In this document: positions 1,540-31,244 of the stretch, in pieces | How the letters are laid out: the number at the start of each line of letters is the position of its first letter | Numbering within the stretch: position 1 is the stretch's first letter | From: a virus | Lineage: Duplodnaviria > Caudoviricetes | Length of the DNA stretch: 32,001 nucleotides | Reading direction: 5' to 3' (one strand) | IMG/VR virus record: IMGVR_UViG_3300016672_000047 | Coordinates: 1 to 32,001 of that record | Translations under genes and position numbers: made by a program | Notes under the pieces: generated by a model | Told to the model about the DNA's origin: nothing | Seen by the model: the letters and a program-made list of their open reading frames with translations, nothing else | The model's database searches: none

Positions 1540-1548
1540 GACGACTCC

Positions 1549-4074: not shown

Positions 4075-4102
4075 GAGAACACTCCAGGCAGAGATGCGGG
4101 GC

Positions 4103-4219
4103 TCAGTCCATGAGCCACCAGATCATCGTGGAAAAGGGCATGGTCTCGATTTCATTGGCGGCAAATGAATACTGCGTCGCCAAGCGCTTCGCGACCTGCT
4201 TCTGCAGTTCGGCGTTAAA
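4103..4219 (-). CDS. Frameshift extension of tail assembly chaperone (gpE'/gpGT-like)
   Basis: Open frame FNAELQKQVAKRLATQYSFAANEIETMPFSTMIWWLMD* overlaps the chaperone stop (GGG GTT TAA). It has no start codon near its 5' end and fills the gap to the tape measure gene. Confidence 0.7.
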   Translation of the reverse strand, partial: FNAELQKQVAKRLATQYSFAANEIETMPFSTMIWWLMD

Positions 4220-4817: not shown

Positions 4818-4830
4818 GAGAGCAATTCCT

Positions 4831-5334
4831 TTACAAGCCCAGGTCGCGGCGGACGCTGGCAAGTTGATCGACACCGTTGATAACCCGGACGCAGTTAATT
4901 GGATCGATCTCGTACATCAGCCGGCCGCCGACTTCGAGCTTGAAGTAGCTGACCGCCACGGCGTACTTGAACTCACCGGCCTCACCGGCTTTCCAGTCGC
5001 CTGGATCAATCTCTTTGAGCATGCCCCGCAGGGTGGCGACCACTGCCGTAGTCGCGCCTTTCTGGCCTTTGAAGGAACCCCGGAACACCGCGTTGAACGC
5101 AGTCTGATCGGCCAGGCCGTAAAACTTCATGATCTCGGGGCGCGCACCTTTGCCAGCGAAACTGGCCTCCAGTTTTTCCATGCCCTGATCCATCTCCACC
5201 GGGGCATCCATGCCGCCAGCTCGATGTTCCTCGGTTTTCAAGGTGAGCTTGGGGATCGTTAGGCTGGTGATTTCCCCGTTGAAGCTGAGGCCATCGATAT
5301 GGGCGTTCATGTTGTAGAGCGTTTGCGGAACCAT
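4831..5334 (-). CDS. Major tail tube protein (P2 FII-like)
   Basis: PKLTLKTEEHRAGGMDAPVEMDQGMEKLE and EIDPINCVRVINGVDQLA motifs. Follows the sheath gene. Confidence 0.95.
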   Translation of the reverse strand: MVPQTLYNMNAHIDGLSFNGEITSLTIPKLTLKTEEHRAGGMDAPVEMDQGMEKLEASFAGKGARPEIMKFYGLADQTAFNAVFRGSFKGQKGATTAVVATLRGMLKEIDPGDWKAGEAGEFKYAVAVSYFKLEVGGRLMYEIDPINCVRVINGVDQLASVRRDLGL

Positions 5335-5347
5335 CGAGGGCTCTCCT

Positions 5348-6523: not shown

Positions 6524-6530
6524 AGCTGAA

Positions 6531-6564
6531 CTCCAGAAACGAAAAAGCCCCGCAAATGCGAGGC
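6531..6564 (-). terminator. Hairpin + U-tract fused to the sheath RBS
   Basis: Minus strand GCCTCGCA-TT-TGCGGGGC-TTTTTCGTTTCTGGAG, then ATG 7 nt later. Confidence 0.6.
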
Positions 6565-6595
6565 CATGGGAATATGCGTTGTTACGTGAACCGGG

Positions 6596-6626
6596 AAAGA
6601 AAACGCCCGGTAAATGCCGGGCGTTA
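6596..6626 (-). terminator. Rho-independent terminator after the fibre chaperone
   Basis: Minus strand AACGCCCGG-CATTTA-CCGGGCGTT-TTCTTT at the stop of 6624..7325. Confidence 0.7.
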
Positions 6627-7325
6627 TTGAATCAACTCAGCCAGCCACACTGGCTGCTCTGGCCTGCACCCAACTGCTGGGAAGTGAACCGATTCAGGCC
6701 AGCCCCGCAGATCCTGTCGGTAGCCCTGCAACTGCGTGTACTGCTCAGCAGTGAGAGTTGTTGGCCGCAAAGCCTCTACCTCATCTCGGTGACGCGAGAT
6801 CAACGGGTCAGTGAGCAGCAATGCTCGGTCGCGTATTGAACGCTCGCGAGCTTTCAGCTCTTCCAGCGTAGGACCAGGCACCGGGGCGGTACTTGGTTGA
6901 CCGTTTTCGCCAGGCGCAAGCACAGAGCCGCCAAGTGCCAGCAAGCGGAAAATCTCGTGGTGCTCATCTTGAGGCACCTCGACAAGCTCGGATTCAGGCG
7001 GAAGCAAACACGCTGGGTTGGGTACGGTAATGAGCGGGGGCGAGGCCTGTTCATCCGGCACTTCAATCATTGGATGCACTGCATCAGGATCAAGAACCAA
7101 AATGGTTTCAGGCTCAGTTTGAGCTTCTGATTCCTCACCCTCGACTTGAACCACTTCCACCCACGCCGGATTAGGCACCGAAATCCATGGCTGACTCCAT
7201 TCCGGGTCAGGAACATTCACGGTTGGCCGAGTCCAATCGGGATCGGCTACCTGAATAGTCCGGGTACCGTGGAATTGTTCATTAAAAAATGTGTTGTCGT
7301 GTGCGCTATAGAAAATTTTCATCAA
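6624..7325 (-). CDS. Tail fibre assembly chaperone with Pro-rich repeat insert
   Basis: Immediately follows the fibre gene. C-terminus RERSIRDRALLLTD...QLQGYRQDLRGWPESVHFP...RPEQPVWL is typical of fibre-assembly proteins. Confidence 0.8.
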   Translation of the reverse strand: MMKIFYSAHDNTFFNEQFHGTRTIQVADPDWTRPTVNVPDPEWSQPWISVPNPAWVEVVQVEGEESEAQTEPETILVLDPDAVHPMIEVPDEQASPPLITVPNPACLLPPESELVEVPQDEHHEIFRLLALGGSVLAPGENGQPSTAPVPGPTLEELKARERSIRDRALLLTDPLISRHRDEVEALRPTTLTAEQYTQLQGYRQDLRGWPESVHFPAVGCRPEQPVWLAELIQ

Positions 7326-9413
7326 TTAATTTCCTCGGGCTTCTACCATTAAAACAAGTCCCGTTTGGACTACAGCGGCCCACTCTTCCAGTCGGATAGT
7401 AGCGCCGTCCAAGGCAATTGCATTGAAATGCGCCTGACCACCAAACTGTGTACCTGTCGGGAGTTTAAAGCCGATTTTTACGTTTAGAATTTGGTTTGGA
7501 AATTTAAAAGGCCAAGTAACGTTTACAGTTCCAGTCGAAGCAAAGTCGCCGACAACGACATCAATCCACTGCTTAATCTCGCCGGTGTCTGCGTTCTTGC
7601 TCCAACCGTTTGGAGCCAGTAGAGCGGTATCTTTTGGCCGGTCAACCTGCAAATAAACAAATGTCCCGTCAGCGTGTAGGAGGTAAGGCGCAGTCTTAGC
7701 TCCCCCAAAAAAACCGACTGCCTGAGATTGGTCTTTGTTGATTTTCGACGACGGGTCGAAGTTCCCCGCGTCCCACGCCAAGTTCCCCCCAAACGAAGGT
7801 CGTGTAGTCAGGCCTGTAAGGGCGGTAATGCTGCTGTTTACGCCGGTCGTAGCCCCTTCAACCCAGCCACCCCAGACATCAACAACACGCGCACGCCAGA
7901 ACTTCCGGGCGGGAATGCCCCTTGTAACTATCTCCTGGGTCGCCGTCCGATTCCCTGTAGCCAACGAGTAGTTCATATGGAAGAGCATGGATCCAGAGCC
8001 CGCACCCAAAGGCACGTTCAATGTGGCTCCAGCAATAGAGTAAACCCCTGTCGCTTCGATGCTGTTGCAATCACCGCCAGTAACACCGGGTGCGCTTGCT
8101 CCACCCAAACCAAAGTCGGCAACTCGAAGAGCGCGCCCCGCAGTAGTGTCTGACGTTGTGGATGTCGCTGTGAGGGCAGCAGCCGTTCCAAGCTGCGACT
8201 TATCGGCTTTTGAAGACGGGTCAAAGTTGCCGGAGTGATAAACCTCACGCCAGATATAAAGTCCGTCCGCACCTACTCGCCTGAATCCGAAAGTGTCCGC
8301 GCCGCTGGCCATGTGAGCGTAAAGATCGAACGCCAATGGATTTGCGCCGGGATATTTCCACCGCACGTAAAGACCGCCAGTTGTGGGCTTGTCGGTCGTA
8401 GGGCCGGAATAAATCCCGATATCATGCTTTGCAACATCAGCAATTGCCCCAGTAAGAACACCCTGTGGCGTGGACGAGATGGCATCAGTAATGCCTGCCC
8501 CAGCAAGAGTAGTGGGGTTCGTACCAGCAATAACGCGGCCTAGCTTGTCCACCGTCAAGCTGCGGTAAGTGCCAGCGACAATACCCGTGCGCCCGGCAAC
8601 CACTTCAAAGGTCAGCGCAGTGGTGCCAAGTACAATCGGCGCATCTGTCACGAGCTGCCAAACGCTATCGCCGTTTGTAGTACCTTTCTCGACGCTTACG
8701 AACAGCCCCGGTGTCACCTCGACACTGGCGTCAGCATCCTGAGCGCGCTTCCAGGCACCGGCTGCAGGGACAACATAGACACCGTTGTTTTTCGCCTGAG
8801 ACTGGTCTTTCACCAGTACGCGGTCATCTGCAGCAAGCGCCACGCCATCGATAGTCTGTAGGCCACTCAGGACGATGTTCGCAGTGGTGGCCACGAGTAC
8901 CGAATGCTTGAAGTCCTGCTTGTTGAACGCCTCAGTAATCGACAGGTCAACGTATTCGCGGGTCGCCAAAACAATTGCCGGGTCGATCTTCAGCACAATA
9001 TTGCTGATGCTAGAGACAATGAAGTTCATCCGCACAATTTGCGTACGGCCTGAACCCTGATCCAGCGCAGGTTTAAAGCTAGGTGCGCAATTGGAAACTG
9101 CAACCAGGTCACCGTCCGAATCGTACAAGCCGATCTCGCGGATCCACCAACCACCAACGTCTGCCGGAATTACTTGCTCGGCAATGATGACGGCCGCGTT
9201 AACCGGATCAACGCGCAGTTGATTCAACGGCGCACGTCGCTGCTCGTTGATCAGCTTGGTCTGTGTTGCGCTGGGCATAGGGTCAGTGCCATTGGCATCC
9301 CCTACCCCGAGCTGTGTCAGGTTCCAGGGAATCCCCAAGGCATTGGCATTTGCCAACTTCGCGGCCCCCACGTTGGTGAGGATCGCCATAAATTGCGAGT
9401 TGCGATCAATCAT
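7326..9413 (-). CDS. Tail fibre protein (P2 gpH-like N-terminus, mosaic C-terminus)
   Basis: N-terminal ILTNVGAAKLANA...EQVIPADVGGWWIREIGLYD baseplate anchor. The C-terminal region is visibly more AT-rich and ends GWSKNADTGEIKQW...VTWPFKFPN. Confidence 0.93.
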   Translation of the reverse strand: MIDRNSQFMAILTNVGAAKLANANALGIPWNLTQLGVGDANGTDPMPSATQTKLINEQRRAPLNQLRVDPVNAAVIIAEQVIPADVGGWWIREIGLYDSDGDLVAVSNCAPSFKPALDQGSGRTQIVRMNFIVSSISNIVLKIDPAIVLATREYVDLSITEAFNKQDFKHSVLVATTANIVLSGLQTIDGVALAADDRVLVKDQSQAKNNGVYVVPAAGAWKRAQDADASVEVTPGLFVSVEKGTTNGDSVWQLVTDAPIVLGTTALTFEVVAGRTGIVAGTYRSLTVDKLGRVIAGTNPTTLAGAGITDAISSTPQGVLTGAIADVAKHDIGIYSGPTTDKPTTGGLYVRWKYPGANPLAFDLYAHMASGADTFGFRRVGADGLYIWREVYHSGNFDPSSKADKSQLGTAAALTATSTTSDTTAGRALRVADFGLGGASAPGVTGGDCNSIEATGVYSIAGATLNVPLGAGSGSMLFHMNYSLATGNRTATQEIVTRGIPARKFWRARVVDVWGGWVEGATTGVNSSITALTGLTTRPSFGGNLAWDAGNFDPSSKINKDQSQAVGFFGGAKTAPYLLHADGTFVYLQVDRPKDTALLAPNGWSKNADTGEIKQWIDVVVGDFASTGTVNVTWPFKFPNQILNVKIGFKLPTGTQFGGQAHFNAIALDGATIRLEEWAAVVQTGLVLMVEARGN

Positions 9414-10015
9414 GGGTAAACATCCAGAGTGTCTATGCTGTGTTCGCGCCCGACCACACCGATGTACCCGGTGACGTCAATGTCACGCTGCACGGGTGGG
9501 TAGACGTCGATTACGTCGCCCTCATAGAGAGCGACACCGATGTGTATGGCGCCTTGGGTTTCGAGGCTGATAGCCAGTCCGGTCAAGGGGCGGCTGACGG
9601 GCTTGGCGTCGTCGATCAGGTGCTCCAGCTCCAGGTACATCTCTTCGGTGATGCCGGTGTCCAGCACGCCTACCTTCAAGGCGAAGGTGCCGGGAATACC
9701 TTTGGGCGTGGTCTGCCACCACTCAAGCACCTCGATCAGGTAACCGAGCGGTTCCACCACCCGACGCAGGGCGCCAATGGTTCCTTTGTGCGCGTGCACG
9801 TAAAACGCGGAGCGGATGGCCGAACGCTTGACTGCTTCGGACCATTTGTTGTCCCAACGATCCACCGACCACGTCCAGGCCAGCCACGGCAGCAAGTGCG
9901 CCGGGCAGGTGTCCGGGTTGTACAGCGTGCGCAAAGGAATCGCAGTTTTCTCGACTAGCGCGGCCTCAATAGCGCGCTCCAACTGCGTACTGTTTAGCGG
10001 CAGTAAACTGGTCAT
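9410..10015 (-). CDS. Baseplate/tail protein I (P2 gpI-like)
   Basis: MTSLLPLNSTQLERA...CPAHLLPWLAWTWSVDRWD...HAHKGTIGALRRVV. Start trimmed to ATG 10015, overlapping the J stop. Confidence 0.93.
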   Translation of the reverse strand: MTSLLPLNSTQLERAIEAALVEKTAIPLRTLYNPDTCPAHLLPWLAWTWSVDRWDNKWSEAVKRSAIRSAFYVHAHKGTIGALRRVVEPLGYLIEVLEWWQTTPKGIPGTFALKVGVLDTGITEEMYLELEHLIDDAKPVSRPLTGLAISLETQGAIHIGVALYEGDVIDVYPPVQRDIDVTGYIGVVGREHSIDTLDVYP

Positions 10016-10899
10016 GATGTGCCACCAAGAACGACGCTGTAGCCTGTGCAATACGCCGCCTGGGATTTGCTGGGCTTGAGGTCTTTCCAGTTCTTCAGCT
10101 CTACCCGGCCAACACCGCTGATGTGCAACTGGGCGTTGACACCAGATTGAGCAACTTCCAATGCCAAGCGTTTGCGCGGATTGATCCAGACAGCAAGCCG
10201 CCGGGTTGCCTCGGCCAGGGTGGCGTCATTTTCCGGTCCAGCGCCTTGCATGTGCAGTACGGCATCAACCCGATAGTTCAGGATTTCGGCGCTCTGTACG
10301 ATGAGGCGGTCACCCACCGGCCGGACGTTGTCGTCGCTGAGCTTGGCATGCACTGTGTTGAGCAATGATTGATCAGCCAGCCCGCTACCGGTCAGGCTTA
10401 GTACGGTCACTACCACGACAGCGGGTGATGGGCTTTCTGCCGTTGCATCAGCGACCAGCGCCGAAGCGTTGCGTGCATGGAAGATATAGCTGTTACGGGG
10501 GCCTGCTGTAGTCAGCCCTTCGTAGACCAGCTGGATACGCTCACGCAGGGCGTCGTCAGACTCTTTAACTTCTTCGACCGGCGGCACCGCCAACAGGTTG
10601 GCCGGCTGTATCACCAGCCGTTGCAATTTTACGTTGGCCGCGAGCTGATCAAGATCTTCCTTTTCCGCGTAAGCCAACATCAGCGCCTTGGCCGCGTCGT
10701 TGACCCGTGCGCGATTTTGCATCTTGCCGTAGGCGCCCAGCTCGACGAGCTTGACCACCGGGTCGCTTTCCAGCGCGGCGGACCAGTTATCGCCCATGTA
10801 CTCGCGAAAAGCGGCAAGGCCCTCTTCGTACAGCGCCTCGTAGTCCAGCGACTCCAGCACCTGCGGCGCCGGCAACGCCGATAAATCCACCGTGCTCAT
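10012..10899 (-). CDS. Baseplate J-like protein
   Basis: VDLSALPAPQVLE, ESDDALRERIQL, TAGPRNSYIFHA and VRPVGDRL motifs. Confidence 0.95.
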   Translation of the reverse strand: MSTVDLSALPAPQVLESLDYEALYEEGLAAFREYMGDNWSAALESDPVVKLVELGAYGKMQNRARVNDAAKALMLAYAEKEDLDQLAANVKLQRLVIQPANLLAVPPVEEVKESDDALRERIQLVYEGLTTAGPRNSYIFHARNASALVADATAESPSPAVVVVTVLSLTGSGLADQSLLNTVHAKLSDDNVRPVGDRLIVQSAEILNYRVDAVLHMQGAGPENDATLAEATRRLAVWINPRKRLALEVAQSGVNAQLHISGVGRVELKNWKDLKPSKSQAAYCTGYSVVLGGTS

Positions 10900-11222
10900 G
10901 CCGACACCTCCAGCAGTAGGCTTTCGCCCAGGTACTCACCCGTTAACTTGAAGTCGATGCGGCCGCTGACGACGGCAACGACCTGCACCTGTTCCAGCTT
11001 CAGTCGCGGTTCCCAGCGCCCCAGCGAGCGAGCCACCTCGGCCTGCACCGCACTCTTCCAACCGGCGTTAACCGGCAGATCGACAAACCGCCGGATCTGG
11101 CTGCCGTACTCAGGTCGCATCCGTCGACTGCCCACGGGCGTCCCAAGAATGTCCCCAATGGACTGCCGGAGATGGTCGAGACCGGACAGCGGTTTGCCGG
11201 TGTGGCGATCCATTCCGATCAT
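10896..11222 (-). CDS. Baseplate wedge protein W (gp25-like)
   Basis: GMDRHTGK...HLRQSIGDILGTPVGSRRMRPEYGS...RWEPRL. Confidence 0.95.
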   Translation of the reverse strand: MIGMDRHTGKPLSGLDHLRQSIGDILGTPVGSRRMRPEYGSQIRRFVDLPVNAGWKSAVQAEVARSLGRWEPRLKLEQVQVVAVVSGRIDFKLTGEYLGESLLLEVSA

Positions 11223-11227
11223 CGGGA

Positions 11228-11425
11228 TTACTCCTGCAGCAGTTCCAGATCCGGATGCGCCTGCAGCTGCGCGAATTGCTCATCGCTGCTGGCTGTCACA
11301 CGCCCCTTGGCAACCGCTGCAGTACTGCCATCGGCAAAGACCAAGGTGCGAGAGGTGTAAAGCGTGTCGCGGAAAACGCGGCCAGGCCGTGCATCTTCCT
11401 GACCATCGGCTTTGTTCTTGCTCAT
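11228..11425 (-). CDS. Small hypothetical protein between V and W
   Basis: ORF fills the V-W gap and has an AGGAG RBS upstream of ATG 11425. Confidence 0.7.
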   Translation of the reverse strand: MSKNKADGQEDARPGRVFRDTLYTSRTLVFADGSTAAVAKGRVTASSDEQFAQLQAHPDLELLQE

Positions 11426-11434
11426 CAACAAATG

Positions 11435-11466
11435 CTCCTAAAACGAAAAACCCGCACAGGGCGGGT
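11435..11466 (-). terminator. Hairpin + U-tract fused to RBS
   Basis: Minus strand ACCCGC-CCTGT-GCGGGT-TTTTCGTTTTAGGAG, right after the V stop. Confidence 0.6.
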
Positions 11467-11471
11467 CGTAA

Positions 11472-12047
11472 TCAATGTTTGTGGTTCGGCGAGTTACCGC
11501 CGGCATCAATGATCTTGCCGGCACCGTAAATGTCGCCGGTCGTATTCAACTTGCCGTTGATCTGGGTTGCACCGTCGATGGTGACCGCGCCCACCAGGTT
11601 GATCTCGCCCGACACCAAGCGCGTGCTGTCCGGCGTCATCTCAAGCACAGACCCGCCGACCTTTACCGTCACGCTGCCGGCAGGCAGGTCGATGGTGTAG
11701 CTATGGGCCTGCCAGTCGTAGACCAACGAACCACCGTCGTCGAAACGCCACACCTCGACGTGGTCGCGGTTGTCCGGCTGGGCGCCTGCATTGCCGTACA
11801 AGCCAGGGATGAAGGTACCCATCGCCGGCTCACCGCTTGGGCAGATCAACACTCCCTGCTCTTTCAGGCTCGGCACCCTCCAGTGGCGCGCCTTGCCTGC
11901 CGCCTGGCTGTGCCAACGCACCCAGGCGCTGGTCCAGTCACCCGACTGCACACGCACCATGGCGGTGGTCAGATCCACCGCCACCACCACGCAGGGCATC
12001 ACCGTCGAGGCAATCATGCGGTCATGCTGGGCACTGGCGTAGCTCAT
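11472..12047 (-). CDS. Baseplate spike protein V
   Basis: WVRW...AGKARHWRVPSLKEQ, FDDGGSLVYD, and a C-terminal HxH (NHKH) iron-binding tip motif. Confidence 0.94.
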   Translation of the reverse strand: MSYASAQHDRMIASTVMPCVVVAVDLTTAMVRVQSGDWTSAWVRWHSQAAGKARHWRVPSLKEQGVLICPSGEPAMGTFIPGLYGNAGAQPDNRDHVEVWRFDDGGSLVYDWQAHSYTIDLPAGSVTVKVGGSVLEMTPDSTRLVSGEINLVGAVTIDGATQINGKLNTTGDIYGAGKIIDAGGNSPNHKH

Positions 12048-12562
12048 TGCAGATCCTCCGGTTTGATCTGCCTAACCCCCGGTCCAAGGTCGATGACCAA
12101 TGAACCCGGCGGCTCATCCGGCCACGGCCATTCCTCGGCCCCCAGGTAAACCGTCTGGTCCCACTCCACCAGCCAGACGAAGTAGCCATCCAGTTCGGGC
12201 TTGGTCCAGTCTTGTGAGGATCGAACAAACTCGGCGCAGTCGACGACCAAGCCCCAGCTCTGCCCCCGTAGAAGCACCGCAAGCTGAGAGGCCAACTGCA
12301 CGGCCTGCCGTTGCGGATCTGCGCTGATCGAATCAACGATGATCCGCGCCTCGAATTTGCAGGTCAGCGAGGTTTCACCGGTACCGATATCCGGTGCGGG
12401 TTCCATCTCGGCCATTTCCAGCAGCACCACAGGCGTGGGGATGCTGGTGTCAGCCGACAGATCCGGCCAGAACGATGCCCTCTGGATCCCCGGCAATTTC
12501 TCCTGCAGGTGCTGCTCGATGGCCTCATACAGCCTGTCGAGGCTAAAAGATTGATCAGACAC
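12044..12562 (-). CDS. Tail completion/terminator-like protein
   Basis: Position between gpZ and V. Probable GTG start at 12562 overlaps the gpZ stop. Function inferred from synteny. Confidence 0.65.
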   Translation of the reverse strand: MSDQSFSLDRLYEAIEQHLQEKLPGIQRASFWPDLSADTSIPTPVVLLEMAEMEPAPDIGTGETSLTCKFEARIIVDSISADPQRQAVQLASQLAVLLRGQSWGLVVDCAEFVRSSQDWTKPELDGYFVWLVEWDQTVYLGAEEWPWPDEPPGSLVIDLGPGVRQIKPEDLQ

Positions 12563-13211
12563 GGGCGGTCCCCTTGAGGTACTTCTGCAATTCAAAGTTG
12601 AGCTCTTGCTTGAGGATCTCCAGCAAGCGCTCGTCAGCGCGTTTCACCCAGCTGTCGAAGTGCGGTCGCACCTGGTCCAGCGAGACCTTGGCTTTCGCCA
12701 GTGGGAAGCGGTTGTCGCTCTCCGCGATAAAGCCCGAGCTGCGCCGGCCCTGAGTGCTGCCGGGGTAGTCCGAGGCGCTGAAGTGCTTGCTCGACGTGCG
12801 GATCCAGATGTCAGGACTGCTTCCATACACTTGCTTGAAGAACGCTCCCTGATAACGCCGCCCCGCCACCGAGACGCCGGCGCGGGTTTGCCGAGCCTTG
12901 CCGACCCGGCTGGCCTCTATGGCGTTGACCCCAAACCACAACTTGCCGCGCATCGCCCCGCCGCTGACCGGGTAAGCCCGTAGGCGTTGCCGGACGGCGC
13001 CGATTGCGATGCGTTCCTGCTTGCCCACGGCCCTTGCGATATGAGTACGCAGCCAGCCCAGCGTCTTGTTGATTGCACGCCGCTGAGCCGCTGCAGCAGC
13101 CTTGGGCACCAACTGCCCGAACTCGCGCAAGGCCTGGGAATGCACCGCTGACGGCTGAATGTTGATCATCCCGCTGTCGCGCTTGTGCTGAACGTAAGTG
13201 CCGACACTCAT
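12555..13211 (-). CDS. Minor tail protein Z (lambda gpZ-like)
   Basis: Basic protein with AAAQRRAINKTLGWLRT and GRRYQGAF motifs, in the neck-gene position. Confidence 0.8.
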   Translation of the reverse strand: MSVGTYVQHKRDSGMINIQPSAVHSQALREFGQLVPKAAAAAQRRAINKTLGWLRTHIARAVGKQERIAIGAVRQRLRAYPVSGGAMRGKLWFGVNAIEASRVGKARQTRAGVSVAGRRYQGAFFKQVYGSSPDIWIRTSSKHFSASDYPGSTQGRRSSGFIAESDNRFPLAKAKVSLDQVRPHFDSWVKRADERLLEILKQELNFELQKYLKGTARV

Positions 13212-13528
13212 GGACGCTTCCTCAAAATCAGGGCAACCAGGCCATCGCCACCGGGCTCCAGCTGCAGCAGGTCGTAGTCGCCCCCGCCGTCCAGTGTCGG
13301 CAAGTCGATGGTGACCCGCAGGCCCTTGCTCAGGCCGTCCGAATCTTTCACGCGAATCTCAAAGCGAGGCTCGCGTAATCCGGTGTGGACCTTGCCGAAC
13401 TGCGGCGCTTTCCAGGGCGCCGCGAACATGCCTAGCACGGGCTCGGCGCGGCCCTCGATCAGGGCACTGTCGCCCAAGGTGTCGAACACCACATCGTCGA
13501 TGTCGTCGATCAGCTCGCGGAAGGCCAC
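13208..13528 (-). CDS. Head-tail joining protein (gpFII-like)
   Basis: Probable GTG start at 13528, just after the capsid stop. About 106 aa, beta-rich, ending EPGGDGLVALIL. Function inferred from synteny. Confidence 0.7.
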   Translation of the reverse strand: MAFRELIDDIDDVVFDTLGDSALIEGRAEPVLGMFAAPWKAPQFGKVHTGLREPRFEIRVKDSDGLSKGLRVTIDLPTLDGGGDYDLLQLEPGGDGLVALILRKRP

Positions 13529-13530
13529 GG

Positions 13531-14526
13531 TCAGAGTTCCAGCAGGATTTGCGCCCGAGGTCGTGTGCACAGGTGCAGCGGGTTGGACTGGGCTTCACCG
13601 GCCACACCCTTGCCGAACTGCATTGGCTCAATCTTGCTGTAGTACGGGATGCCCTGGGTGTTGACCGTTTCCATGTAGTCGGCCGGCGCGAAGCACGAGA
13701 TGTACAGATCCGGCACGCCCTCAGGGATCAGCAGGGCCTTGTCGTCGTGGACGAAAGCAACACCCGCTACCTTGCCGCGATAACGCTCCCAGACGATCCC
13801 GCCGAACTCGAAGCTTTCACGGGCATCGCCACGCAGAGATGCGGCCTGCATGGTGTTGAGGTAGGTCTCCTTGACCGACTTGTGCACGATGAGCTTGTTC
13901 CAGAAGTTCTTGCCGCACATTGCGCGGGAGCCGCTGTTAGTGACGCTGCCGAGGGCTTCCTCTTGCATGTCCAACGCTTCGCCGCATTTGACCCGCAGCT
14001 CGGTGTCTGGACTGTTCAAGCCCATCTGAAGCTTCTGGCGATTCACGCCGAAGGATTTATAAATGTCCAACAGGACCGTCTTACCATCGGCGTCCAGAAC
14101 CTGGCCGTTCAACGCGCCCATACGCTGGTATTCGTGGGTGGCATCCAACTGGCGGCGCGCTTTCGCCAGGCGCTTATTGACCACGTCCTGCACGGCCTGC
14201 AATTCGGTGCGCGTGCCGAAGGCGCGAATGCCCTGGATCTCGTCGGCCTTGATGGTGAAGCGTTCCGGCAGGTGCACGGTGTTGAACGGAATCAACTGAC
14301 GCTTGGGCGCACCGACCACCATGCCCGAAGTGCCACGCTCACCCGCCGGCACCAGGGCCAGGGTGTCGCCGTCCTTCTCGATCTGTACGGTCAGGGTGCT
14401 GATCCCCTCTTCGCGGAACAGGCCAAGGCTGCTGATACGGCCCGGCAGGTATTCCTGGTCATTGATTGCAGCGGTCAACGAGGAAACGCTGAACGCATCG
14501 TCTTCAAAAATGGCGATCTCGGCCAT
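13531..14526 (-). CDS. Major capsid protein (lambda gpE-like)
   Basis: Start ATG 14526 behind GGAG. FSVSSLTAAIN, FAPADYMETVNTQG and EAQSNPLHLCTRP motifs. Confidence 0.93.
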   Translation of the reverse strand: MAEIAIFEDDAFSVSSLTAAINDQEYLPGRISSLGLFREEGISTLTVQIEKDGDTLALVPAGERGTSGMVVGAPKRQLIPFNTVHLPERFTIKADEIQGIRAFGTRTELQAVQDVVNKRLAKARRQLDATHEYQRMGALNGQVLDADGKTVLLDIYKSFGVNRQKLQMGLNSPDTELRVKCGEALDMQEEALGSVTNSGSRAMCGKNFWNKLIVHKSVKETYLNTMQAASLRGDARESFEFGGIVWERYRGKVAGVAFVHDDKALLIPEGVPDLYISCFAPADYMETVNTQGIPYYSKIEPMQFGKGVAGEAQSNPLHLCTRPRAQILLEL

Positions 14527-21376: not shown

Positions 21377-21410
21377 CTCCAATGCAAAAACCCGGCTCAG
21401 GGCCGGGTTT
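21377..21410. terminator. Hairpin upstream of the holin RBS (U-tract on minus strand)
   Basis: AAACCCGGC-N5-GCCGGGTTT inverted repeat, followed on the minus strand by TTGCATTGGAG. Confidence 0.65.
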
Positions 21411-21456
21411 CTTGATATCGTCGGTTGTTCAACTTCAATTTAAAACAGGGTGTTAC

Positions 21457-21804
21457 ATGGATGCTTCTGGGGTTTTCACAGGCTTGCTTACGACCGTGAT
21501 CGGAGGAAGTTTTGTCGCTTGGCTGTTTGCTCCAGCAGACGTCTTAGGCGGAGCGGTACGCCGCCTCAAAATTATGGGAAGCATCTTGTATCGGTCTCTA
21601 GCCCTTCTAGGTGCTCTCGCAATGCTAATTAGTTCTGCTAATGAGTTTTACAAATTCGCTTATTCCGAAGCGCCGATCCAGAGAATGGAAGTAATAGGCT
21701 TGTTCTTCTACATGCTGAACTTTTTCGTGTACCTGGTGGCTACCATTGCGGTGACTGCAATCTGGGCCAAAGGAGAAGGTTCGAATCGTTCAGAACGCCC
21801 TTAG
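21457..21804 (+). CDS. Small membrane protein (about 3 hydrophobic segments), moron
   Basis: ATG 21457 behind AGGGTG. AT-rich, oriented opposite to flanking genes, with long hydrophobic stretches. Confidence 0.75.
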   Translation: MDASGVFTGLLTTVIGGSFVAWLFAPADVLGGAVRRLKIMGSILYRSLALLGALAMLISSANEFYKFAYSEAPIQRMEVIGLFFYMLNFFVYLVATIAVTAIWAKGEGSNRSERP

Positions 21805-21835: not shown

Positions 21836-21864
21836 TTTTTACAGGTCGATTCCGGTGGCAGCAA
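21836..21864 (-). promoter_or_regulatory. Candidate late promoter
   Basis: Minus strand TTGCTG-17 bp-TAAAAA, pointing into the holin/head/tail operon. Confidence 0.5.
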
Positions 21865-21885
21865 GTGAGTTTTAATGCCATGGCG

Positions 21886-24843: not shown

Positions 24844-25060
24844 AACGGGACGTCCTCAGATCATCAGTGGACTTGCACTCAATGCAGAGCGTGCAACCGG
24901 GCTGTGCCAATCGACGCCCCTCGGGGATCGGCTCTTCACATTCATCACAGAACATCAAGGAAGGCAGAACAATGTCAGACAGCAGCGCGAGCCGTGCCGC
25001 GACGGCTTGATCAATCTGCTTCTGCACCAGGTCATTTGCAAAGTCGATGTCATCAGCCAC
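24833..25060 (-). CDS. TraR/DksA C4 zinc-finger protein
   Basis: ADDIDFAND...CDECEEPIPEGRRLAQPGCTLCIEC. Confidence 0.92.
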   Translation of the reverse strand: MADDIDFANDLVQKQIDQAVAARLALLSDIVLPSLMFCDECEEPIPEGRRLAQPGCTLCIECKSTDDLRTSRYAR

Positions 25061-25571
25061 GGTCCGCCCCCCGAGTTGTCTGGTTGACGTAGGTGGCGCG
25101 ATTCAACATCCCCAACAACCCCTGAATGCCGCGAAACACCTGCAGGCGAATCTCGGCCAGTTCCTGATCACTCACAACACCATCGCCAATGCTCTTGGCC
25201 CAGGTGTCGGCCAGATCGGCCACCTGCCGGAAGTACCCGGCAATACCGGTGGTCAAGGTCTCGGGCATATCGCTGGTGTAGGTTTCAGCCAGCTCCTGCC
25301 AGGTCGTATCGCCGACCAGGGCATGCACCGCATCGAGGATGCGCCGGTCCTTGGTCAGTTCGAGGATCTCGCCGAACTCTTGAATGTTGACGGCGTGGGA
25401 GGGATGGGTGGGAGACAACTTGTGCTGCAAGGTAGTGGCATTGCGGCCGGTGGTGGCGGCTATCGCAGCGGCACCGCCGGGATAATCCCGTGCGGCGTGG
25501 TACAGGGCTAATTCAAGCGTCAGGACTTCCCTTTGCGCTCTATCAACACAGCTTAAAGCTACTCGGCTCAT
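25053..25571 (-). CDS. Phage regulatory protein, CII-like (186/P2-type family)
   Basis: Start ATG 25571 behind AGGA. LYHAARDYPGGAAAIA...LQHKLSP and DGVVSDQE motifs. Downstream of cro. Confidence 0.82.
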   Translation of the reverse strand: MSRVALSCVDRAQREVLTLELALYHAARDYPGGAAAIAATTGRNATTLQHKLSPTHPSHAVNIQEFGEILELTKDRRILDAVHALVGDTTWQELAETYTSDMPETLTTGIAGYFRQVADLADTWAKSIGDGVVSDQELAEIRLQVFRGIQGLLGMLNRATYVNQTTRGADRG

Positions 25572-25730
25572 GGCATTAATCCTACTAAGTTGCCAGTGCC
25601 CCGCGACCTGCAGTGGTGTTACATTTGCCGCGTGGCTTGAAAGGGCCCAAACGCCGGCTAGATCTAGGGATCGAAACCGGCACCGTGCCGAGGCGAACAA
25701 TCCGTTGCTCACCTCTGGCGCAACAGCTGC

Positions 25731-25805
25731 CTAATCTGTGGTGGAAAAGGCAGCAACCCAAGACATCCGTGTCTTGGCAGCGCGATAAAGGGAGGTGGTT
25801 TGCAT
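25731..25805 (-). CDS. 24-aa small ORF MQTTSLYRAAKTRMSWVAAFSTTD
   Basis: Strong AGGAGG SD 9 nt before ATG 25805, on the cro-cII transcript. Too short for the ORF track. Confidence 0.45.
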   Translation of the reverse strand: MQTTSLYRAAKTRMSWVAAFSTTD

Positions 25806-25870
25806 GTGGTGTGCCCTCCTACCTTCGTCGCGACCCGACAGCACTGTGGTGGTGTGTGCCGGGAGGAACT

Positions 25871-25896
25871 AGGCGGCCCTTGGGTCGCCTTTTTTC
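25871..25896 (+). terminator. Rho-independent terminator for a plus-strand (antisense) transcript
   Basis: AGGCGGCCC-TT-GGGTCGCCT-TTTTTC. The U-tract is on + although the flanking genes are on -. Confidence 0.75.
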
Positions 25897-25899
25897 TAT

Positions 25900-26160
25900 C
25901 TACACTGTGGCTTTCTGCGGCGCCGATGCATTGAGCAGCCAGGCAGCGTCAAACGCATTGCCCTTTTGCTTTGCGGCGGTCGCTAAGAGTTTTGCGTAGT
26001 GGGTTTCACCGGTGTAATCGGTGCGGGGAAGGCTGGCAGCCAAGCGCCATTTATTGAGCGCCTGATAACTCCTTTCACACACCTTGGCGGCAGCACCAAT
26101 GCCGCCTACGGCTTCAAATGCGAACGCGATGGCGTTCGGAAAATCTGCGGGGTCCAGCAT
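25900..26160 (-). CDS. cro: Cro-like repressor
   Basis: Start ATG 26160 behind GGAGG. HTH GGIGAAAKVCERSYQALNKW. Divergent from cI. Confidence 0.85.
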   Translation of the reverse strand: MLDPADFPNAIAFAFEAVGGIGAAAKVCERSYQALNKWRLAASLPRTDYTGETHYAKLLATAAKQKGNAFDAAWLLNASAPQKATV

Positions 26161-26173
26161 GGCAACCTCCATT

Positions 26174-26248
26174 TATCAACTCGAAGTTGATATTAACATC
26201 AACTGACTATTGCGCAACCCCTGTGAGAGTATCAACTCATGGTTGATA
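26174..26248. promoter_or_regulatory. Right operator/divergent promoter region
   Basis: Palindromes TATCAAC-TCGAA-GTTGATA (26174-26192) and TATCAAC-TCATG-GTTGATA (26230-26248), with a half-site CATCAAC at 26197. Minus-strand promoter TTGCGC-16-TAATAT for cro. Confidence 0.85.
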
Positions 26249-26964
26249 AGAACGAGCTACGGGCAGCTTTCACGGCGCGCCTTCACGAAGCACTCGACGA
26301 TGCCGGTGTACGCACCCGGGGACGTGGGGTGGATATTCACGCCCATCTTGTGAAGGTTGGGGCTAAAAAAAGTACTCAGGCCATCAGCAAGTGGCTGAAT
26401 GGCGAATCCATACCTGAGGCGGACAGCATGGTTGTGCTGTGTTCATGGTTGAAGGTGCGTAGGGAGTGGCTGGAATATGGTGTGCTACCTAAAGAGCAGA
26501 CCGGGGACAGTAATGTCCACCAGTTCGATAAAGCAGGCGAAAGTAATGTCCGAGAGATCACTCGACGCTTTGGAAAAGTCCCACTGATTTCGTGGGTACA
26601 GGCAGGCGCATGGTGCGAGTCGAATTTTGAGCAGCATGACGGCGAATCATGGCTGTCGTGCCCTGTGCCTATCAGCGAGAGCGGTTATGCGCTGAAGGTA
26701 CTTGGTGACTCTATGACGAATCCAGGGCCAGGTCGCAGCTATCCTACGGGGTGCATTATTTTTGTGGATCCTGAGGCTGAAACGAAGACAGGTGATCGAG
26801 TGATCGCGAGGGTTCCCCGGACCAATGAAGCTACATTTAAGATTTTGGTGGCGGACGCAGGCAGACAATTTTTAAGGCCTATCAATCCGCAATACCCAAT
26901 CATTGATATTACGGAAGAAACACACATATGTGGAAAAGTAGTCGGTTCATTTATTCCAGAGTAA
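26239..26964 (+). CDS. cI: CI-like repressor (HTH + S24 autopeptidase)
   Basis: QAISKWLNGESIP HTH, VPLISWVQAG cleavage site, VLGDSM catalytic Ser, EATFK catalytic Lys. Confidence 0.95.
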   Translation: MVDKNELRAAFTARLHEALDDAGVRTRGRGVDIHAHLVKVGAKKSTQAISKWLNGESIPEADSMVVLCSWLKVRREWLEYGVLPKEQTGDSNVHQFDKAGESNVREITRRFGKVPLISWVQAGAWCESNFEQHDGESWLSCPVPISESGYALKVLGDSMTNPGPGRSYPTGCIIFVDPEAETKTGDRVIARVPRTNEATFKILVADAGRQFLRPINPQYPIIDITEETHICGKVVGSFIPE

Positions 26965-26978
26965 TTTAATGTCTAAAA

Positions 26979-27695
26979 CTATGCCTTTAACGCAGCCATT
27001 CGTTTCTGCCTTAATAGTCTCTTTCCCTCCTTTGCCAGATCCTCCAGACAATCATAGATATACATCAGCTCAAGTTCACTCGCAGCCTCAAGAAGTTGAT
27101 TATTTAGCTGAACTGTTCGCGCTTTAATCTCTTCACTGGCACATTCATGATTGGAGTACTTATACAAAAACCGTAGCAACCCACAAGTCTCTATGAGACG
27201 TCTACCCTTATCCGTTTTTGGCAAATACACACCCGCCACACTGATGACATTTATGTGTGCAGAATACTCATCAAAGTGAGGATGGCAAATCAAGTAATCA
27301 TCGGACTCGGTCGAAAACTCATCCTTCACTTTTGCCTTAGTCACAGGCTTATCTAATTTAGCGCCATTACAATCCTTACAACTCACACAGAGATTTTGAC
27401 TTTCAAACATGAAGTGGGGGTGTGTAGCCTTTGGTATTATGTGTTCAGCATCCCAAACCCCATTATGCTCAACCACATTTCTCTGCAAACAAAAAGCACA
27501 CTGATAATCTTGAGCAACAATATAGTGATCCTTCAGACTTTTCTTTATTATCTTCCACACTCCTTTATTAGTATTATCCCAGAAGCCCACCTGTTCCTGA
27601 CGCTGCATCTTCTTAAAGTCCTCAACCAAAGAAACATGCTTAATAGAGTACGCATAGGGCCTGTTTATTTTAAACTGCGACTGCTCCAAACTCAT
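26979..27695 (-). CDS. HNH endonuclease (PtuB/Septu-like)
   Basis: CAFC...WDAEHIIPK...NLCVSCKDCNGAK HNH zinc motif and ICHPHFD. ATGA overlap with the upstream ATPase. AT-rich. Confidence 0.88.
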   Translation of the reverse strand: MSLEQSQFKINRPYAYSIKHVSLVEDFKKMQRQEQVGFWDNTNKGVWKIIKKSLKDHYIVAQDYQCAFCLQRNVVEHNGVWDAEHIIPKATHPHFMFESQNLCVSCKDCNGAKLDKPVTKAKVKDEFSTESDDYLICHPHFDEYSAHINVISVAGVYLPKTDKGRRLIETCGLLRFLYKYSNHECASEEIKARTVQLNNQLLEAASELELMYIYDCLEDLAKEGKRLLRQKRMAALKA

Positions 27696-29047
27696 TGCTG
27701 AACCTCGCTAAGAGCGTCACTCAGAAGATCTATCAATTTAACAACGGGATCGTGCGGCCTCAAATAACCTCTCAAACTAATGATTCTAGCCAGCACATCC
27801 ATACGTTCCTTACTCAGATCAAATCCACCACTTAGCGTACCTAGCGCACTTATAAGCTCACGTGTGAGATATTCATTTTTATATCCAGGAGCACCAAAAA
27901 CGCTCGCCAACTGAAAGTCCGCAGACCTATTATTTAATGCACGAGCATCTACAGTAAGTCCCCTCTGAATATCAAGCACATAACAATTGTTATTACTCAA
28001 ATTTGAAACCACTTGAGGCGAATGCGTGGCAACAATAAAATGACAGCATTTAAAATCACGAAATGAATCTATCAATAATCCGATAAATCTTTCTTGCCAC
28101 TCAGGATGAAGGCAAACTTCCGGCTCATCTATGCATATTAATGCACCATCCTCAATATGACTTGCTATCCCTAAAAGAGCCAATAAAACGCATTGCTCAC
28201 CCGAGCTTGCGTCAGTTATCCTAATTGGACTCTGCACGCCTATTTTCTGCAATGTAATATCACGAAGCCTAATAAACCCTAATTCAAGGAGACATAAAAA
28301 TCGGTCATCGACCGAGCCTCCCAAATTTATTTCAAACACACCAGCCTCATCAATTACGACGTCCAATCGCGGCTTTAAACTAATTAATGAAAAATAATAG
28401 AACGCATCAAGAATTTCGTCCGTTCGATCAGCAATCCCTTCGTAATTAAATTTTTGATTGAAGGGTGCTCCCTTTCTATAGCGCGCATTTAAAAAACTTA
28501 ATAGCGCTCCCTTAGGGTCCTCAGACTGTAAAATCTCATGCATTACCGTAGGCGACGGATCCATAACTAGCCTAACCTGCATAAACCCGTGATAACCCAT
28601 GTAAGAAAACACATTCATGATAGCTTTTAGACGACCAACGTCCTTATTAATCGACCGCAACAACTTACTTATAATTCTCGCCATGTACCCTAGACTTAGG
28701 TTCTGACCAGAGAGCCCTTTCAGCCCAACGTATTCATACTGGCTGGCAAACTCCCCCCTTCTATCAATTGGAAACTTGTCAAAGGGGCTAGTAGACGATG
28801 CAATAATTTTCGTCGGTTGCAGATTAAAACGGACTGATCCCGCATCCTCCGACCATTCGCGTCTAAGTAAAGGCCTATCTTGTGAGGGCTCAGGTACAGA
28901 AACAAATGACCTTATCAACTGGCGCAACAAAAGGCTTTTGCCAGCCCCATTCCGACCCACCACAATAGTAAATATATTTTCGTAATTACAAACATCACCT
29001 AAATGAAATTTCAGTTCTTCGCCTCGAAACTTGCAACTATTAATCAT
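27692..29047 (-). CDS. ABC/AAA_21-type ATPase (PtuA/Septu-like)
   Basis: Walker A GRNGAGKS, signature ASSGEQ, Walker B/D-loop IDEPEVCLHP, H-loop ATHSP. No transmembrane partner. AAGGA RBS. Confidence 0.9.
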   Translation of the reverse strand: MINSCKFRGEELKFHLGDVCNYENIFTIVVGRNGAGKSLLLRQLIRSFVSVPEPSQDRPLLRREWSEDAGSVRFNLQPTKIIASSTSPFDKFPIDRRGEFASQYEYVGLKGLSGQNLSLGYMARIISKLLRSINKDVGRLKAIMNVFSYMGYHGFMQVRLVMDPSPTVMHEILQSEDPKGALLSFLNARYRKGAPFNQKFNYEGIADRTDEILDAFYYFSLISLKPRLDVVIDEAGVFEINLGGSVDDRFLCLLELGFIRLRDITLQKIGVQSPIRITDASSGEQCVLLALLGIASHIEDGALICIDEPEVCLHPEWQERFIGLLIDSFRDFKCCHFIVATHSPQVVSNLSNNNCYVLDIQRGLTVDARALNNRSADFQLASVFGAPGYKNEYLTRELISALGTLSGGFDLSKERMDVLARIISLRGYLRPHDPVVKLIDLLSDALSEVQQ

Positions 29048-29186: not shown

Positions 29187-29231
29187 TATCAACCAATGGC
29201 TGTTGACTAAAATCAACCACAGGTTGATATT
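29187..29231 (+). promoter_or_regulatory. Early (pL-like) promoter with operator
   Basis: TTGACT (29203-29208)-17 bp-GATATT (29226-29231). Operator AATCAAC-CACAG-GTTGATA (29211-29229) and half-site TATCAAC (29187) match the cro/cI operators. Confidence 0.85.
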
Positions 29232-29266
29232 TGCCTCACTCTCCCACCACAGAGCGAGGCAACACC

Positions 29267-29443
29267 ATGCACACCACAGCCACCCTGCACGTCCACCCGG
29301 CCGCTGCTAACCCCTCCCGCATCTTCGAAATCCGCCGTCTGGCACAAGACTGCGGCTGCGCCTTCATCGCGTCCAAACCCAAGCTGAAACAGCACACCGC
29401 CCCTGCTCCGTTCGATCCGAACGGCGGAGGGCAAGCGGCATGA
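29267..29443 (+). CDS. Small early protein (58 aa), unknown function
   Basis: GAGG RBS, ATG 29267. First gene after the early promoter, with an ATGA overlap to the next gene. Confidence 0.75.
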   Translation: MHTTATLHVHPAAANPSRIFEIRRLAQDCGCAFIASKPKLKQHTAPAPFDPNGGGQAA

Positions 29444-30030: not shown

Positions 30031-30315
30031 ATGGAACGTAGCCTCGAAAAAGCCGCCAAGTACTTCGGCCTCACCCGCCCCAAGCTGATCCTGCTCATGC
30101 GTCAAAAGGGCATGCTCAACGACCGCAACCTGCCGGCCTTCCCGGTGCGGGATCGCGAGTATCTACGAGTCAAGGACAGCAACTGGTTCCACGAGACCGC
30201 CGGCATGCAGTACAGCCAGTCGACCAAGGTTCGGCAAGCAGGCATCCGCTGGCTCGCCGATCAACTGGGGCTCGAACTGCCAGCAATCCCGGCAGACAAC
30301 CGTGACGTGGCCTAG
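30031..30315 (+). CDS. Antirepressor KilAC/ANT-like stand-alone domain
   Basis: SLEKAAKYFGLTRPKLILLMRQKGML...NLP...YLRVK...TKVRQAGIRWL pattern. AGGAGG RBS. Confidence 0.78.
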   Translation: MERSLEKAAKYFGLTRPKLILLMRQKGMLNDRNLPAFPVRDREYLRVKDSNWFHETAGMQYSQSTKVRQAGIRWLADQLGLELPAIPADNRDVA

Positions 30316-30520
30316 GGAGTACGCCCGCCAGATCGTCGCCATGAGCACACGCGAGGAGCGCAACGCTGCGCTCCTCGAAGTGCCGGAGCATCTGCGGGAG
30401 CTGACCAAACGCCATTGCCTGAATGCTTGGAACCACCCTTCACGACTCAAACGCAAGGAGGCCGCAGCCCATGAGCAACAACTGCCAGACACCGCTACGA
30501 CTGCTACCCGCCCCGGATAG
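30302..30520 (+). CDS. Hypothetical protein
   Basis: WPREYARQIVAM...RNAALLEVPEHLR. Fills the gap between neighbours. The 3' end overlaps the next gene by 50 nt. Confidence 0.6.
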   Translation: MTWPREYARQIVAMSTREERNAALLEVPEHLRELTKRHCLNAWNHPSRLKRKEAAAHEQQLPDTATTATRPG

Positions 30521-30797
30521 TGCCACCGTCGAGATGCTGCACCAACTCTTCGGCGACGTGCTTATCCCCCTGGAAAAGCTGCGCGTGCATTACTTCAAGA
30601 ACCTCAACGAAAAGACCTTCACCGAGGCGATCGCCAACGGGCGTATTCAGCTGCCGGTGACCACCCTGGACCACAGCGTCAAGGCGATCCGGTATGCCCA
30701 CATCAAACACGTCGCAGCACTGATCGACATCCGCGCTTACCGAGCGGACGAAGACATGCCTCGGCCACAAAACGACTCAACCGAGCAAGACCAGTAA
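30471..30797 (+). CDS. Pyocin activator PrtN-family protein
   Basis: AAGGAGG RBS, ATG 30471. LFGDVLIPLEKLRVHYF...GRIQLPV...SVKA...HIKHVAALID pattern. Confidence 0.82.
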   Translation: MSNNCQTPLRLLPAPDSATVEMLHQLFGDVLIPLEKLRVHYFKNLNEKTFTEAIANGRIQLPVTTLDHSVKAIRYAHIKHVAALIDIRAYRADEDMPRPQNDSTEQDQ

Positions 30798-30845
30798 CCC
30801 AGACGGCTGCCACCACCAGCCACGAAACTACCAGGAGCACACCAC

Positions 30846-31244
30846 ATGACTGCAATTCAAATCTGCGCACTGATCGGCATCATTATCTCGGCCGCGATCC
30901 TCTACTGGGTCGGCTACCGGGGCGGCCTCACTGACGGTAAAAATGAAGGTTACGAAGATGGCCATTCTGACGGTTTCTCTAGGGGCCAGGACGATGCATC
31001 AGCCGCATATGCAACCTCTCTCGAAAAGATGTCGATGCGTTCCCAGAGTCTAGAACACATTCTGCACCGGGAACCGCAAGACCGCCTCGACCTTCTCGCC
31101 ATAGCAGAAAAGCTCAAGCTAGCCGCTGATACCTTCCGAGCGGTTAAATCCGAAAGCCAGGCATCACAGACCCTTGCCTTGCGCGACAAGGCCCTGAGCA
31201 TGGCTGCTGGGTTGGATTCCTTCTTTCAGGAGGATGCTGCATGA
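30846..31244 (+). CDS. Hypothetical protein with N-terminal membrane anchor and GxxxG repeats
   Basis: ICALIGIIISAAILYWVGYRGG hydrophobic segment, then DGKNEGYEDGHSDG. AGGAG RBS. Confidence 0.8.
   Translation: MTAIQICALIGIIISAAILYWVGYRGGLTDGKNEGYEDGHSDGFSRGQDDASAAYATSLEKMSMRSQSLEHILHREPQDRLDLLAIAEKLKLAADTFRAVKSESQASQTLALRDKALSMAAGLDSFFQEDAA

Follow-up and report, generated by a model that had tools for sequence, protein, structure and literature searches.

A conserved, probable guide RNA between cro and cII

We found that, in the phage DNA analysed here, the sequence that separates cro from cII holds a conserved multi-hairpin element with three loops that co-vary with their complements in the PL operon. 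We consider it likely that the element is made as a plus-strand RNA of about 265 nt that pairs with start regions of that operon and blocks their translation, and that it comes from a promoter likely activated by CII. The best reading of this RNA is as a C4-like multi-target antisense RNA that belongs to an undescribed family and has no match in Rfam.

Genomic context of the element

The DNA that we analysed (the window, 32,001 nt) is a 32-kb virus record with a lambdoid gene layout, in the order late genes, Q-like gene, primase, DksA/TraR finger, cII, cro, cI, PtuA/PtuB and PL operon. Relatives of its cII are encoded on 499 IMG/VR stretches, and the relatives that bear names are Pseudomonas of the fluorescens, syringae and putida groups. 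The genes and the promoter that enter the argument are as follows.

25053..25571, minus strand: cII, an activator of the CP76 (phage 186-type) family, 172 aa (Pfam PF06892, E 2e-20; PHROG 101)
25900..26172, minus strand: cro-like gene (PHROG 35)
26239..26964, plus strand: cI repressor (Peptidase_S24, PHROG 4)
29203..29231, plus strand: PL promoter, TTGACT-17-GATATT (promoter scan and sequence)
29267..29443, plus strand: gene 29267, here e1, the first PL gene, 58 aa
start at 30846, plus strand: gene 30846, here e6, 132 aa

The window cII matches a solved "Regulatory protein CII" in the PDB weakly (E 0.28). A 219-aa version of cII extended to a GTG was rejected because the alignment contains single-base indels and the closest homologues are mostly 172 aa long. 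The Q-like protein is 30% identical to an H4907 protein annotated as an antiterminator, and a comparison with the PDB gave no match. The PL promoter is overlapped by repeats of the ATCAAC..GTTGAT type, as are also found between cro and cI. Within the PL operon, e2 overlaps e1, and downstream of e1 lie a KilAC-domain antirepressor-like gene, the third of the operon (30031-30315), and a PrtN/excisionase-like gene (30471-30797). For e1 and e6, the ESM Atlas gave unnamed clusters only, without a function.

By eye, cI seems to be leaderless, since a PRM-like extended -10 within 26204-26241 puts +1 at the A of its ATG. The region between cI and PL (26979-29047) is occupied by a Septu-like PtuA/PtuB defence pair (PADLOC E 1e-128 and 4e-72), and this slot differs in length and content among relatives.

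Fold of the cro-cII gap

The gap, which a preliminary description had put at roughly 330 bp, spans 328 bp (25572-25899). The extended -10, the hairpins and the GTGGTG-type loops that had been read from it were all found in place, and a terminator scan likewise set a plus-strand terminator at 25871-25890 plus its U-tract. Of the stem-loops that had been drawn, the strings stood, but in the predicted fold, which leaves only 3-5 bases open per loop, loops 2 and 3 have stems whose registers differ slightly from those drawn. Two more helices, at 25653-25681 and 25685-25721, had been missed. The main features of the gap are listed below.

25598..25636, minus strand: helix A, which straddles the promoter (alignment folds, compensatory pairs)
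25632..25896, plus strand: predicted small RNA of about 265 nt, with seven helices including the terminator (folds, RNA-library depth step)
25726..25754, plus strand: stem-loop 1, with a loop complementary to the PL leader
25758..25777, plus strand: spacer hairpin E, without a guide loop (6 of 8 pairs occur with more than one Watson-Crick type)
25781..25832, plus strand: stem-loop 2, whose segment 25803-25814 is complementary to the gene 30846 start and, over 10 nt, to codons 1-4 of gene 29267
25834..25863, plus strand: stem-loop 3, with a loop complementary to T3 (and to T1)
25871..25896, plus strand: intrinsic terminator with six U, ending just short of the cro stop codon

Helix A can form in full only in the cro-cII mRNA, where it displays a CACCAC loop; it is a possible fourth target and could act in the leader of the cII mRNA. 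Inverted repeats of the helix A type also occur, by eye, in divergent phages, there with other loops. A protein-coding reading of the gap, as a 128-aa plus-strand ORF at 25613-25999, was rejected because single-base indels run throughout the alignment.

Complementarity between the loops and the PL operon

Both of the pairings that had been proposed proved exact: loop 1 (25735-25744) is the reverse complement of 29244-29253, and loop 2 (25803-25814) is that of 30837-30848. Two further matches had been missed. One is a conserved site ahead of the Shine-Dalgarno sequence of e6 (T3), and the other is a second match of loop 2, of 10 nt, at 29269-29278, which covers codons 1-4 of gene 29267. We denote the targets as follows.

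29244..29253, plus strand: T1, ending 2 nt ahead of the Shine-Dalgarno GAGG of gene 29267
30805..30821, plus strand: T3, a hairpin GGCTG-CCACCAC-CAGCC (compensatory stem changes)
30837..30848, plus strand: T2, from the last Shine-Dalgarno base through the ATG of gene 30846

The pairing of loop 3 with T1 extends over 9 nt. In the predicted fold T1 is mostly unpaired and the loop of T3 is fully open. The string CCACCACAGA is present in both the cro-cII and the PL mRNAs.

By length alone, this complementarity is weak and lies within chance, the longest complement of the gap region in the window being an unrelated 13-mer (3961-3973). When the start regions of eight PL-operon genes were subjected to dinucleotide shuffling, the best match (12) was reached in 40 of 2000 shuffles, and the best two matches (12 and 10) in 5 of 2000. 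Every loop, when compared with 20 of the window's start regions, paired best with e1 or e6; the start of the KilAC-domain gene had no long match to the loops, and the late leader of the window offered no target for them. A further test, namely that targets tolerate wobble changes only, was dropped because any transition in a C/A target yields a wobble.

Conservation across relatives

We compiled 296 loci, of which 283 had enough upstream DNA; 275 with a cII at least 70% identical gave 233 distinct gap sequences. The gap is conserved across all of these sequences, in which the Pseudomonas prophage loci represent about nine types of repressor. The terminator is present in 211 of the 233, and helices B to G show compensatory changes. 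Among these relatives cI and cro are swapped while the RNA element persists, and the targets are conserved beside widely differing PL promoters and operators. The 226 repressors form 10 N-terminal clusters, and the consensus loop 1 is found together with its target at 165 loci, representing 9 of the 10 clusters.

A blastn search of the gap against 50,697 phage records returned a single 22-nt match (E 0.4), and tblastn with cII reached related phages where blastn of the gap gave little. Related RNAs are found in P. aeruginosa and Halomonas phages; inspection of the P. aeruginosa group by eye revealed no obvious U-tract terminator.

At 14 loci of the putida group (L168, L180 and 12 more), the cro-cII gap holds a tandem duplication of the RNA together with the inverted repeat described below. 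The cII-proximal copy lacks the -10 box and the U-tract and retains altered loops, and the duplicated copy of L168 has kept the repeat and lost the start codon. Two divergent loci, L288 and L291, carry an expanded RNA, four hairpins of which have an identical guide for the PL leader (that of loop 1). The terminator hairpin is possibly an extra guide in several of the Halomonas-type loci L296-L304, where the PL operon contains a 12-13-nt complement to it.

Co-variation of loops and targets

We found that loops and targets change together in a clade with variant loops 1 and 3, in a loop 2 group and at two Halomonas loci. The co-variation set comprised 219 loci, the 14 putida-group loci with tandem duplicates being omitted, and 203 and 198 of the 219 extend to the two target regions. 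Paired cells amounted to 2352 of 2412 for loop 1 and 2020 of 2052 for loop 2; the pairing of loop 3 is short, and 193 of its 1584 cells are mismatched.

A double change in loop 2 is accompanied by the matching double change at the e6 start in every case (6/6), the variant target is never found beside another loop, and the variant takes three parsimony steps on the cII tree. The cognate duplexes of loop 2 come to -24.9 and -19.9 kcal/mol, and the crossed ones to -12.5 kcal/mol both ways. Where loop 1 has changed from GG to AA, the PL leader has changed from CC to TT in 9 of 17 cases, and this variant target is never found beside the consensus loop, whose duplex with it would reach -15.9 vs -21.8 kcal/mol. 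A change from G to A in loop 3 is matched by C to T in T3 in 12 of 18 cases, and six consensus loops 3 meet the variant T3 target via a G-U pair. Because the variants of loops 1 and 3 fall mostly in one clade, we counted them as one lineage. There are exceptions: 8 of the 17 loop 1 variants are without a matched target, loop 2 is changed opposite an unchanged target at one locus (L050), the target is changed opposite an unchanged loop at two (L125 and L136), and loop 2 is lost at another (L282).

In four divergent phages in which cII is 39-47% identical (L163, L288, L291 and L295), the longest complement of the RNA within 7-8 kb is in the PL leader (17, 13, 13 and 15 nt, respectively). In Halomonas phage H4907 (L296), whose cII identity falls in this range, the top four complements are of 13-14 nt and two of them lie at the first PL gene; for L162, no PL-leader site was among its nine longest complements. 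A further comparison covered 19 loci, 13 of the Halomonas type and 6 of the 37 of the P. aeruginosa type. At one Halomonas-type locus (L305), one loop base is changed and both targets follow, with 16 and 13 nt of perfect pairing, and at another (L297) a different loop base is changed together with the target in the first gene.

These data bear on the possibility that the matches are chance products of C/A-rich leaders and that their conservation is hitch-hiking. The Pseudomonas phage leaders compared here are C/A-rich, the variant loops are confined to few clades, and the window's longest complement is the unrelated 13-mer. However, double compensatory changes, their occurrence in several independent lineages including Halomonas, and the four divergent phages whose longest complement lies in the PL leader argue the other way. 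We regard chance as largely refuted and give it almost no credence.

A predicted CII-type promoter and a copy of its repeat in the late region

Upstream of the -10 box lies an inverted repeat that had been missed, and a second copy faces the holin gene.

25571..25595, unstranded: inverted repeat TGGCA-N15-TGCCA, predicted CII site (conservation, 186 pE geometry)
25617..25625, plus strand: extended -10, TG-n-TACATT, with a predicted start at about 25632 (sequence, conservation)
21856..21880, minus strand: second TGGCA-N15-TGCCA, a perfect copy that faces holin, predicted CII-controlled late promoter

The half-site centres of the first repeat (25593 and 25573) are 20 bp apart, at about -39 and -59 from the start predicted off the -10 box. 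Its four outer pairs are invariant in 102 of 102 non-redundant sequences, its spacer is 15 nt long in 99 of 112 distinct promoters, and in divergent phages a -10-like box stands, by eye, 23-24 nt after the repeat. According to PMC6593788, the CII of phage 186 binds an inverted repeat at about -38/-58 of pE, a promoter that transcribes cI and has negligible basal activity. By analogy, the promoter of the RNA is likely activated by CII.

Of 211 loci, 207 have the late-side repeat between the Q-like gene and holin; 36 copies lie elsewhere in the 3.9 Mb. The repeat also occurs in divergent Pseudomonas and Halomonas loci. Sequence around it is conserved on the holin side only, where a conserved -10-like box lies 25 nt further. 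The count of repeats in the window is by itself not significant (3 with one mismatch vs 2.24 expected), and the significance lies in the conservation. From these sequence patterns we infer that CII acts, through predicted binding sites, at both the RNA promoter and the late promoter; the late-side copy suggests that a CP76-type CII may control late transcription. The two promoters have different spacer sequences, which makes the Q-like protein a less probable binder.

A third TGGCA..TGCCA, with a 16-nt spacer, is found deeper in the late region of some divergent loci (near 13536 in L288 and L291, near 13768 in L296). In most relatives only about 143 nt separate the late-promoter repeat from holin, and in the window a 140-aa membrane-like ORF (21382-21804, plus strand; no match in PADLOC) is inserted in the late leader. 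A terminator-like hairpin lies directly ahead of holin.

Depth of the element in RNA libraries

Three runs recorded as RNA, from one study of organism H, yielded contigs that are 84-95% identical over long pieces. Short contigs within 25677-25895 have depths of about 1,000-14,000, vs 81-480 for the long flanking contigs, and the ratio of the element to its left (cII-side) flank is 79, 46 and 30 in the three runs. Contigs of X14 and X18 break at 25895 and 25896, which is the end of the plus-strand U-tract. A run that is probably DNA (X1) is flat, with no depth step. The means of the left flanking contigs equal 57, 43 and 43 high-depth words, which would put the left (5') edge no further left than 25626-25637, close to the predicted 25632. 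Depth is greatest at the left, as expected from 5'-anchored reads of a plus-strand RNA. A T-rich loose end precedes 25677 in one contig of X18, as could be expected of a tailed 3' end on the minus strand; another loose end in X18, at 25850, resembles sense 23S rRNA and was left out of the evidence.

Because such contigs show neither strand nor a reliable level, the depth step is supporting evidence and not proof. A multi-guide RNA is probably expressed, on the strand and from the start that we infer. A plus-strand small RNA that pairs with PL start regions, as the preliminary description had proposed, is now supported by co-variation, the kept terminator, the conserved promoter and the depth step.

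The same promoter could serve another purpose, in that the element might chiefly be an attenuator-like leader of a pE/PRE establishment transcript, which would start under CII and by regulated read-through continue into anti-cro and cI, pairing with PL being secondary. Its position, its direction and the spacing of its repeat are those of 186 pE, which transcribes cI (PMC6593788). However, cI has, by eye, a plausible leaderless PRM-type promoter of its own, and the loops co-vary with sites at a distance of 3-5 kb. The terminator may leak, and the P. aeruginosa group has no obvious U-tract; against this stand the presence of the terminator in 211 of 233 gap sequences and the breaks of RNA contigs at its end. 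We consider an attenuator of this kind to be quite improbable.

Strand of the selected structure

The gap folds better than shuffles on both strands, with z -3.05 on the plus and z -4.30 on the minus strand. We also carried out a wobble test, in which GU and AC parsimony steps were counted over pairs that are at least 70% Watson-Crick. The GU/AC steps were 25/14 for helix A, 14/12 for B, 11/49 for C, 7/0 for D, 9/27 for E, 89/88 for F, 25/15 for G and 5/3 for the terminator. This result is mixed: C and E point to the minus strand, D and G to the plus strand, and B and F to neither; the commonest non-standard pairs of the terminator are G-U on the plus strand. From this mixture, structure seems to have been selected on both strands.

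Another possibility is that the working elements are hairpins with CCACCAC loops on the mRNAs (cro-cII, the PL leader and the gap between xis and e6), to which a protein or RNA polymerase would bind much as at lambda nut or HK022 put sites, and that the plus-strand RNA is only their cis-antisense partner or decoy. The better fold of the minus strand, the tolerance of helices C and E for minus-strand wobble, the T-rich loose end in the X18 contig and the fact that helix A is whole on the mRNA only would all be accommodated, as would T3, a co-varying hairpin with a fully open loop. The placement of the sites also recalls lambda, in which nutL and nutR are same-sense sites after PL and after cro. 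In antitermination of this kind, however, the sites of one phage share one specificity. Here, each loop changes with its own target as the other sites stay constant (the loop 2 group, L305 and L297); base-pairing predicts that pairs change one at a time, and a single protein that binds a shared site would not allow it. Moreover, T2 and the match in e1 coincide with start codons and lie outside hairpins, the terminator and the promoter are on the plus strand, and the PL genes include no recognisable arginine-rich protein of the N type. We therefore think it unlikely that these hairpins are chiefly protein-binding sites, and favour a plus-strand antisense RNA.

Proposed mechanism

Such an antisense RNA would be made from about 25632 to 25896 on the plus strand and would stop at its own terminator. 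The extended -10 would give basal synthesis in the lysogen, and CII would boost it. The loops would kiss open CCACCAC/CACCAC stretches, T1 and T3 being predicted to be unpaired; at gene 29267 the ribosome site would be clamped from both sides by loops 1 and 2, and at gene 30846 by loops 3 and 2. A block of e1 would have polar effects on e2, which overlaps it, and then on the KilAC-domain and excisionase-like genes, and PL output would be damped by the RNA at the decision point and later. When PR fires, the cro-cII mRNA, as a mirror copy, would neutralise the RNA, which may explain why both strands look as if selected for structure.

Given a promoter that resembles a CII-activated one and has its site in common with the late promoter, shut-off of PL in lytic growth may be a further or an alternative role of the RNA. 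One point against a role in the lysogen is that a strictly CII-dependent promoter would be silent there, as basal activity of 186 pE is negligible (PMC6593788). A role in lysogeny, suggested by abundant RNA with low flanking depth, and a shut-off in mid-infection can both hold.

Comparison with known RNAs

That the RNA is not of a described family, as had been supposed, agrees with Rfam, which gave 0 matches in the window at the gathering score and, at a lower threshold over 25400-26300, three weak unrelated matches (E 2.6-5.6). A search of mainly open literature found no description of it. It may sit among the unnamed candidates of PMC10690425, where a search of part of the supplement gave no match.

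Like c4 of P1/P7 (RF01695) and the CI RNA of P4, this is a structured phage RNA with loops complementary around a ribosome site, and, as in c4, two sites flank each targeted ribosome site. PMC12197685 and PMC8198154 describe c4 loops as pairing around a ribosome site on an mRNA in which the antirepressor is encoded further downstream; in P1, c4, icd and ant form one operon (PMC8198154), and C4 RNA is matured by RNase P according to PMC5499578. Unlike c4, the RNA described here does not match the RF01695 covariance model, is about 265 nt long with three guide loops (four or more in L288 and L291), and has its own terminator and a CII-type promoter. It is encoded apart from its targets, in a transcription unit of its own that lies 3-5 kb from the sites behind PL, and it is conserved across repressor types, whereas c4 is the basis of P1/P7 heteroimmunity.

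Lambda aQ, an antisense RNA of about 220 nt, comes from paQ, a promoter whose activity in the lysogenic response is co-ordinated with that of pRE and pI (PMC12197685). Both RNAs come from a CII-type promoter, CII control being predicted for ours, but the action proposed for aQ is in cis on Q, and the present RNA has a conserved fold and, as trans targets, short sites within the PL operon. With 186 pE, as described in PMC6593788, the element shares a CP76-family CII alongside, a repeat two helical turns apart and a promoter that faces a lytic promoter; it differs in the conserved terminator before cro and in the recurrence of the repeat at a late promoter facing holin. P22 sar and lambda OOP are likewise phage antisense RNAs, which tune antirepressor or cII output, but they are short (68-77 nt) and have one target each, and OOP overlaps the 3' end of cII, whereas the present RNA lies upstream of the cII start. 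Protein sponges of the CsrB/RsmZ type repeat ANGGA in their hairpin loops. We rejected a sponge of this kind because the loops read GUGGUG, GGA occurs in loop 1 only and is preceded there by GU, and there is no Rfam match; the GGA of loop 1 is also lost in 17 variants.

Implications

More tentatively, we can imagine a broader picture, possible although rather doubtful at present, in which modular guide RNAs are widespread in temperate phages of Pseudomonas and Halomonas. Each hairpin would be a separately evolving guide for one start site, CII would switch on the RNA and the lysis promoter together, the RNA would confer cross-immunity independent of the repressor, and the variant clades would be instances of escape and rematch. 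Because the RNA and its targets are common to nine repressor groups, a lysogen's RNA would, if this is true, silence the PL operon of heteroimmune relatives. That 9 of the 10 repressor clusters have the consensus loop 1 and its target in common predicts such cross-talk between heteroimmune phages, and the natural compensatory variants are ready-made specificity controls. The occurrence of the predicted CII site at the late promoter as well suggests for this CII family a role other than the establishment of cI, a role that would be surprising to phage specialists. If the reading as a guide RNA is true, an RNA layer would be added to the lysis-lysogeny switch of a very common Pseudomonas prophage family.
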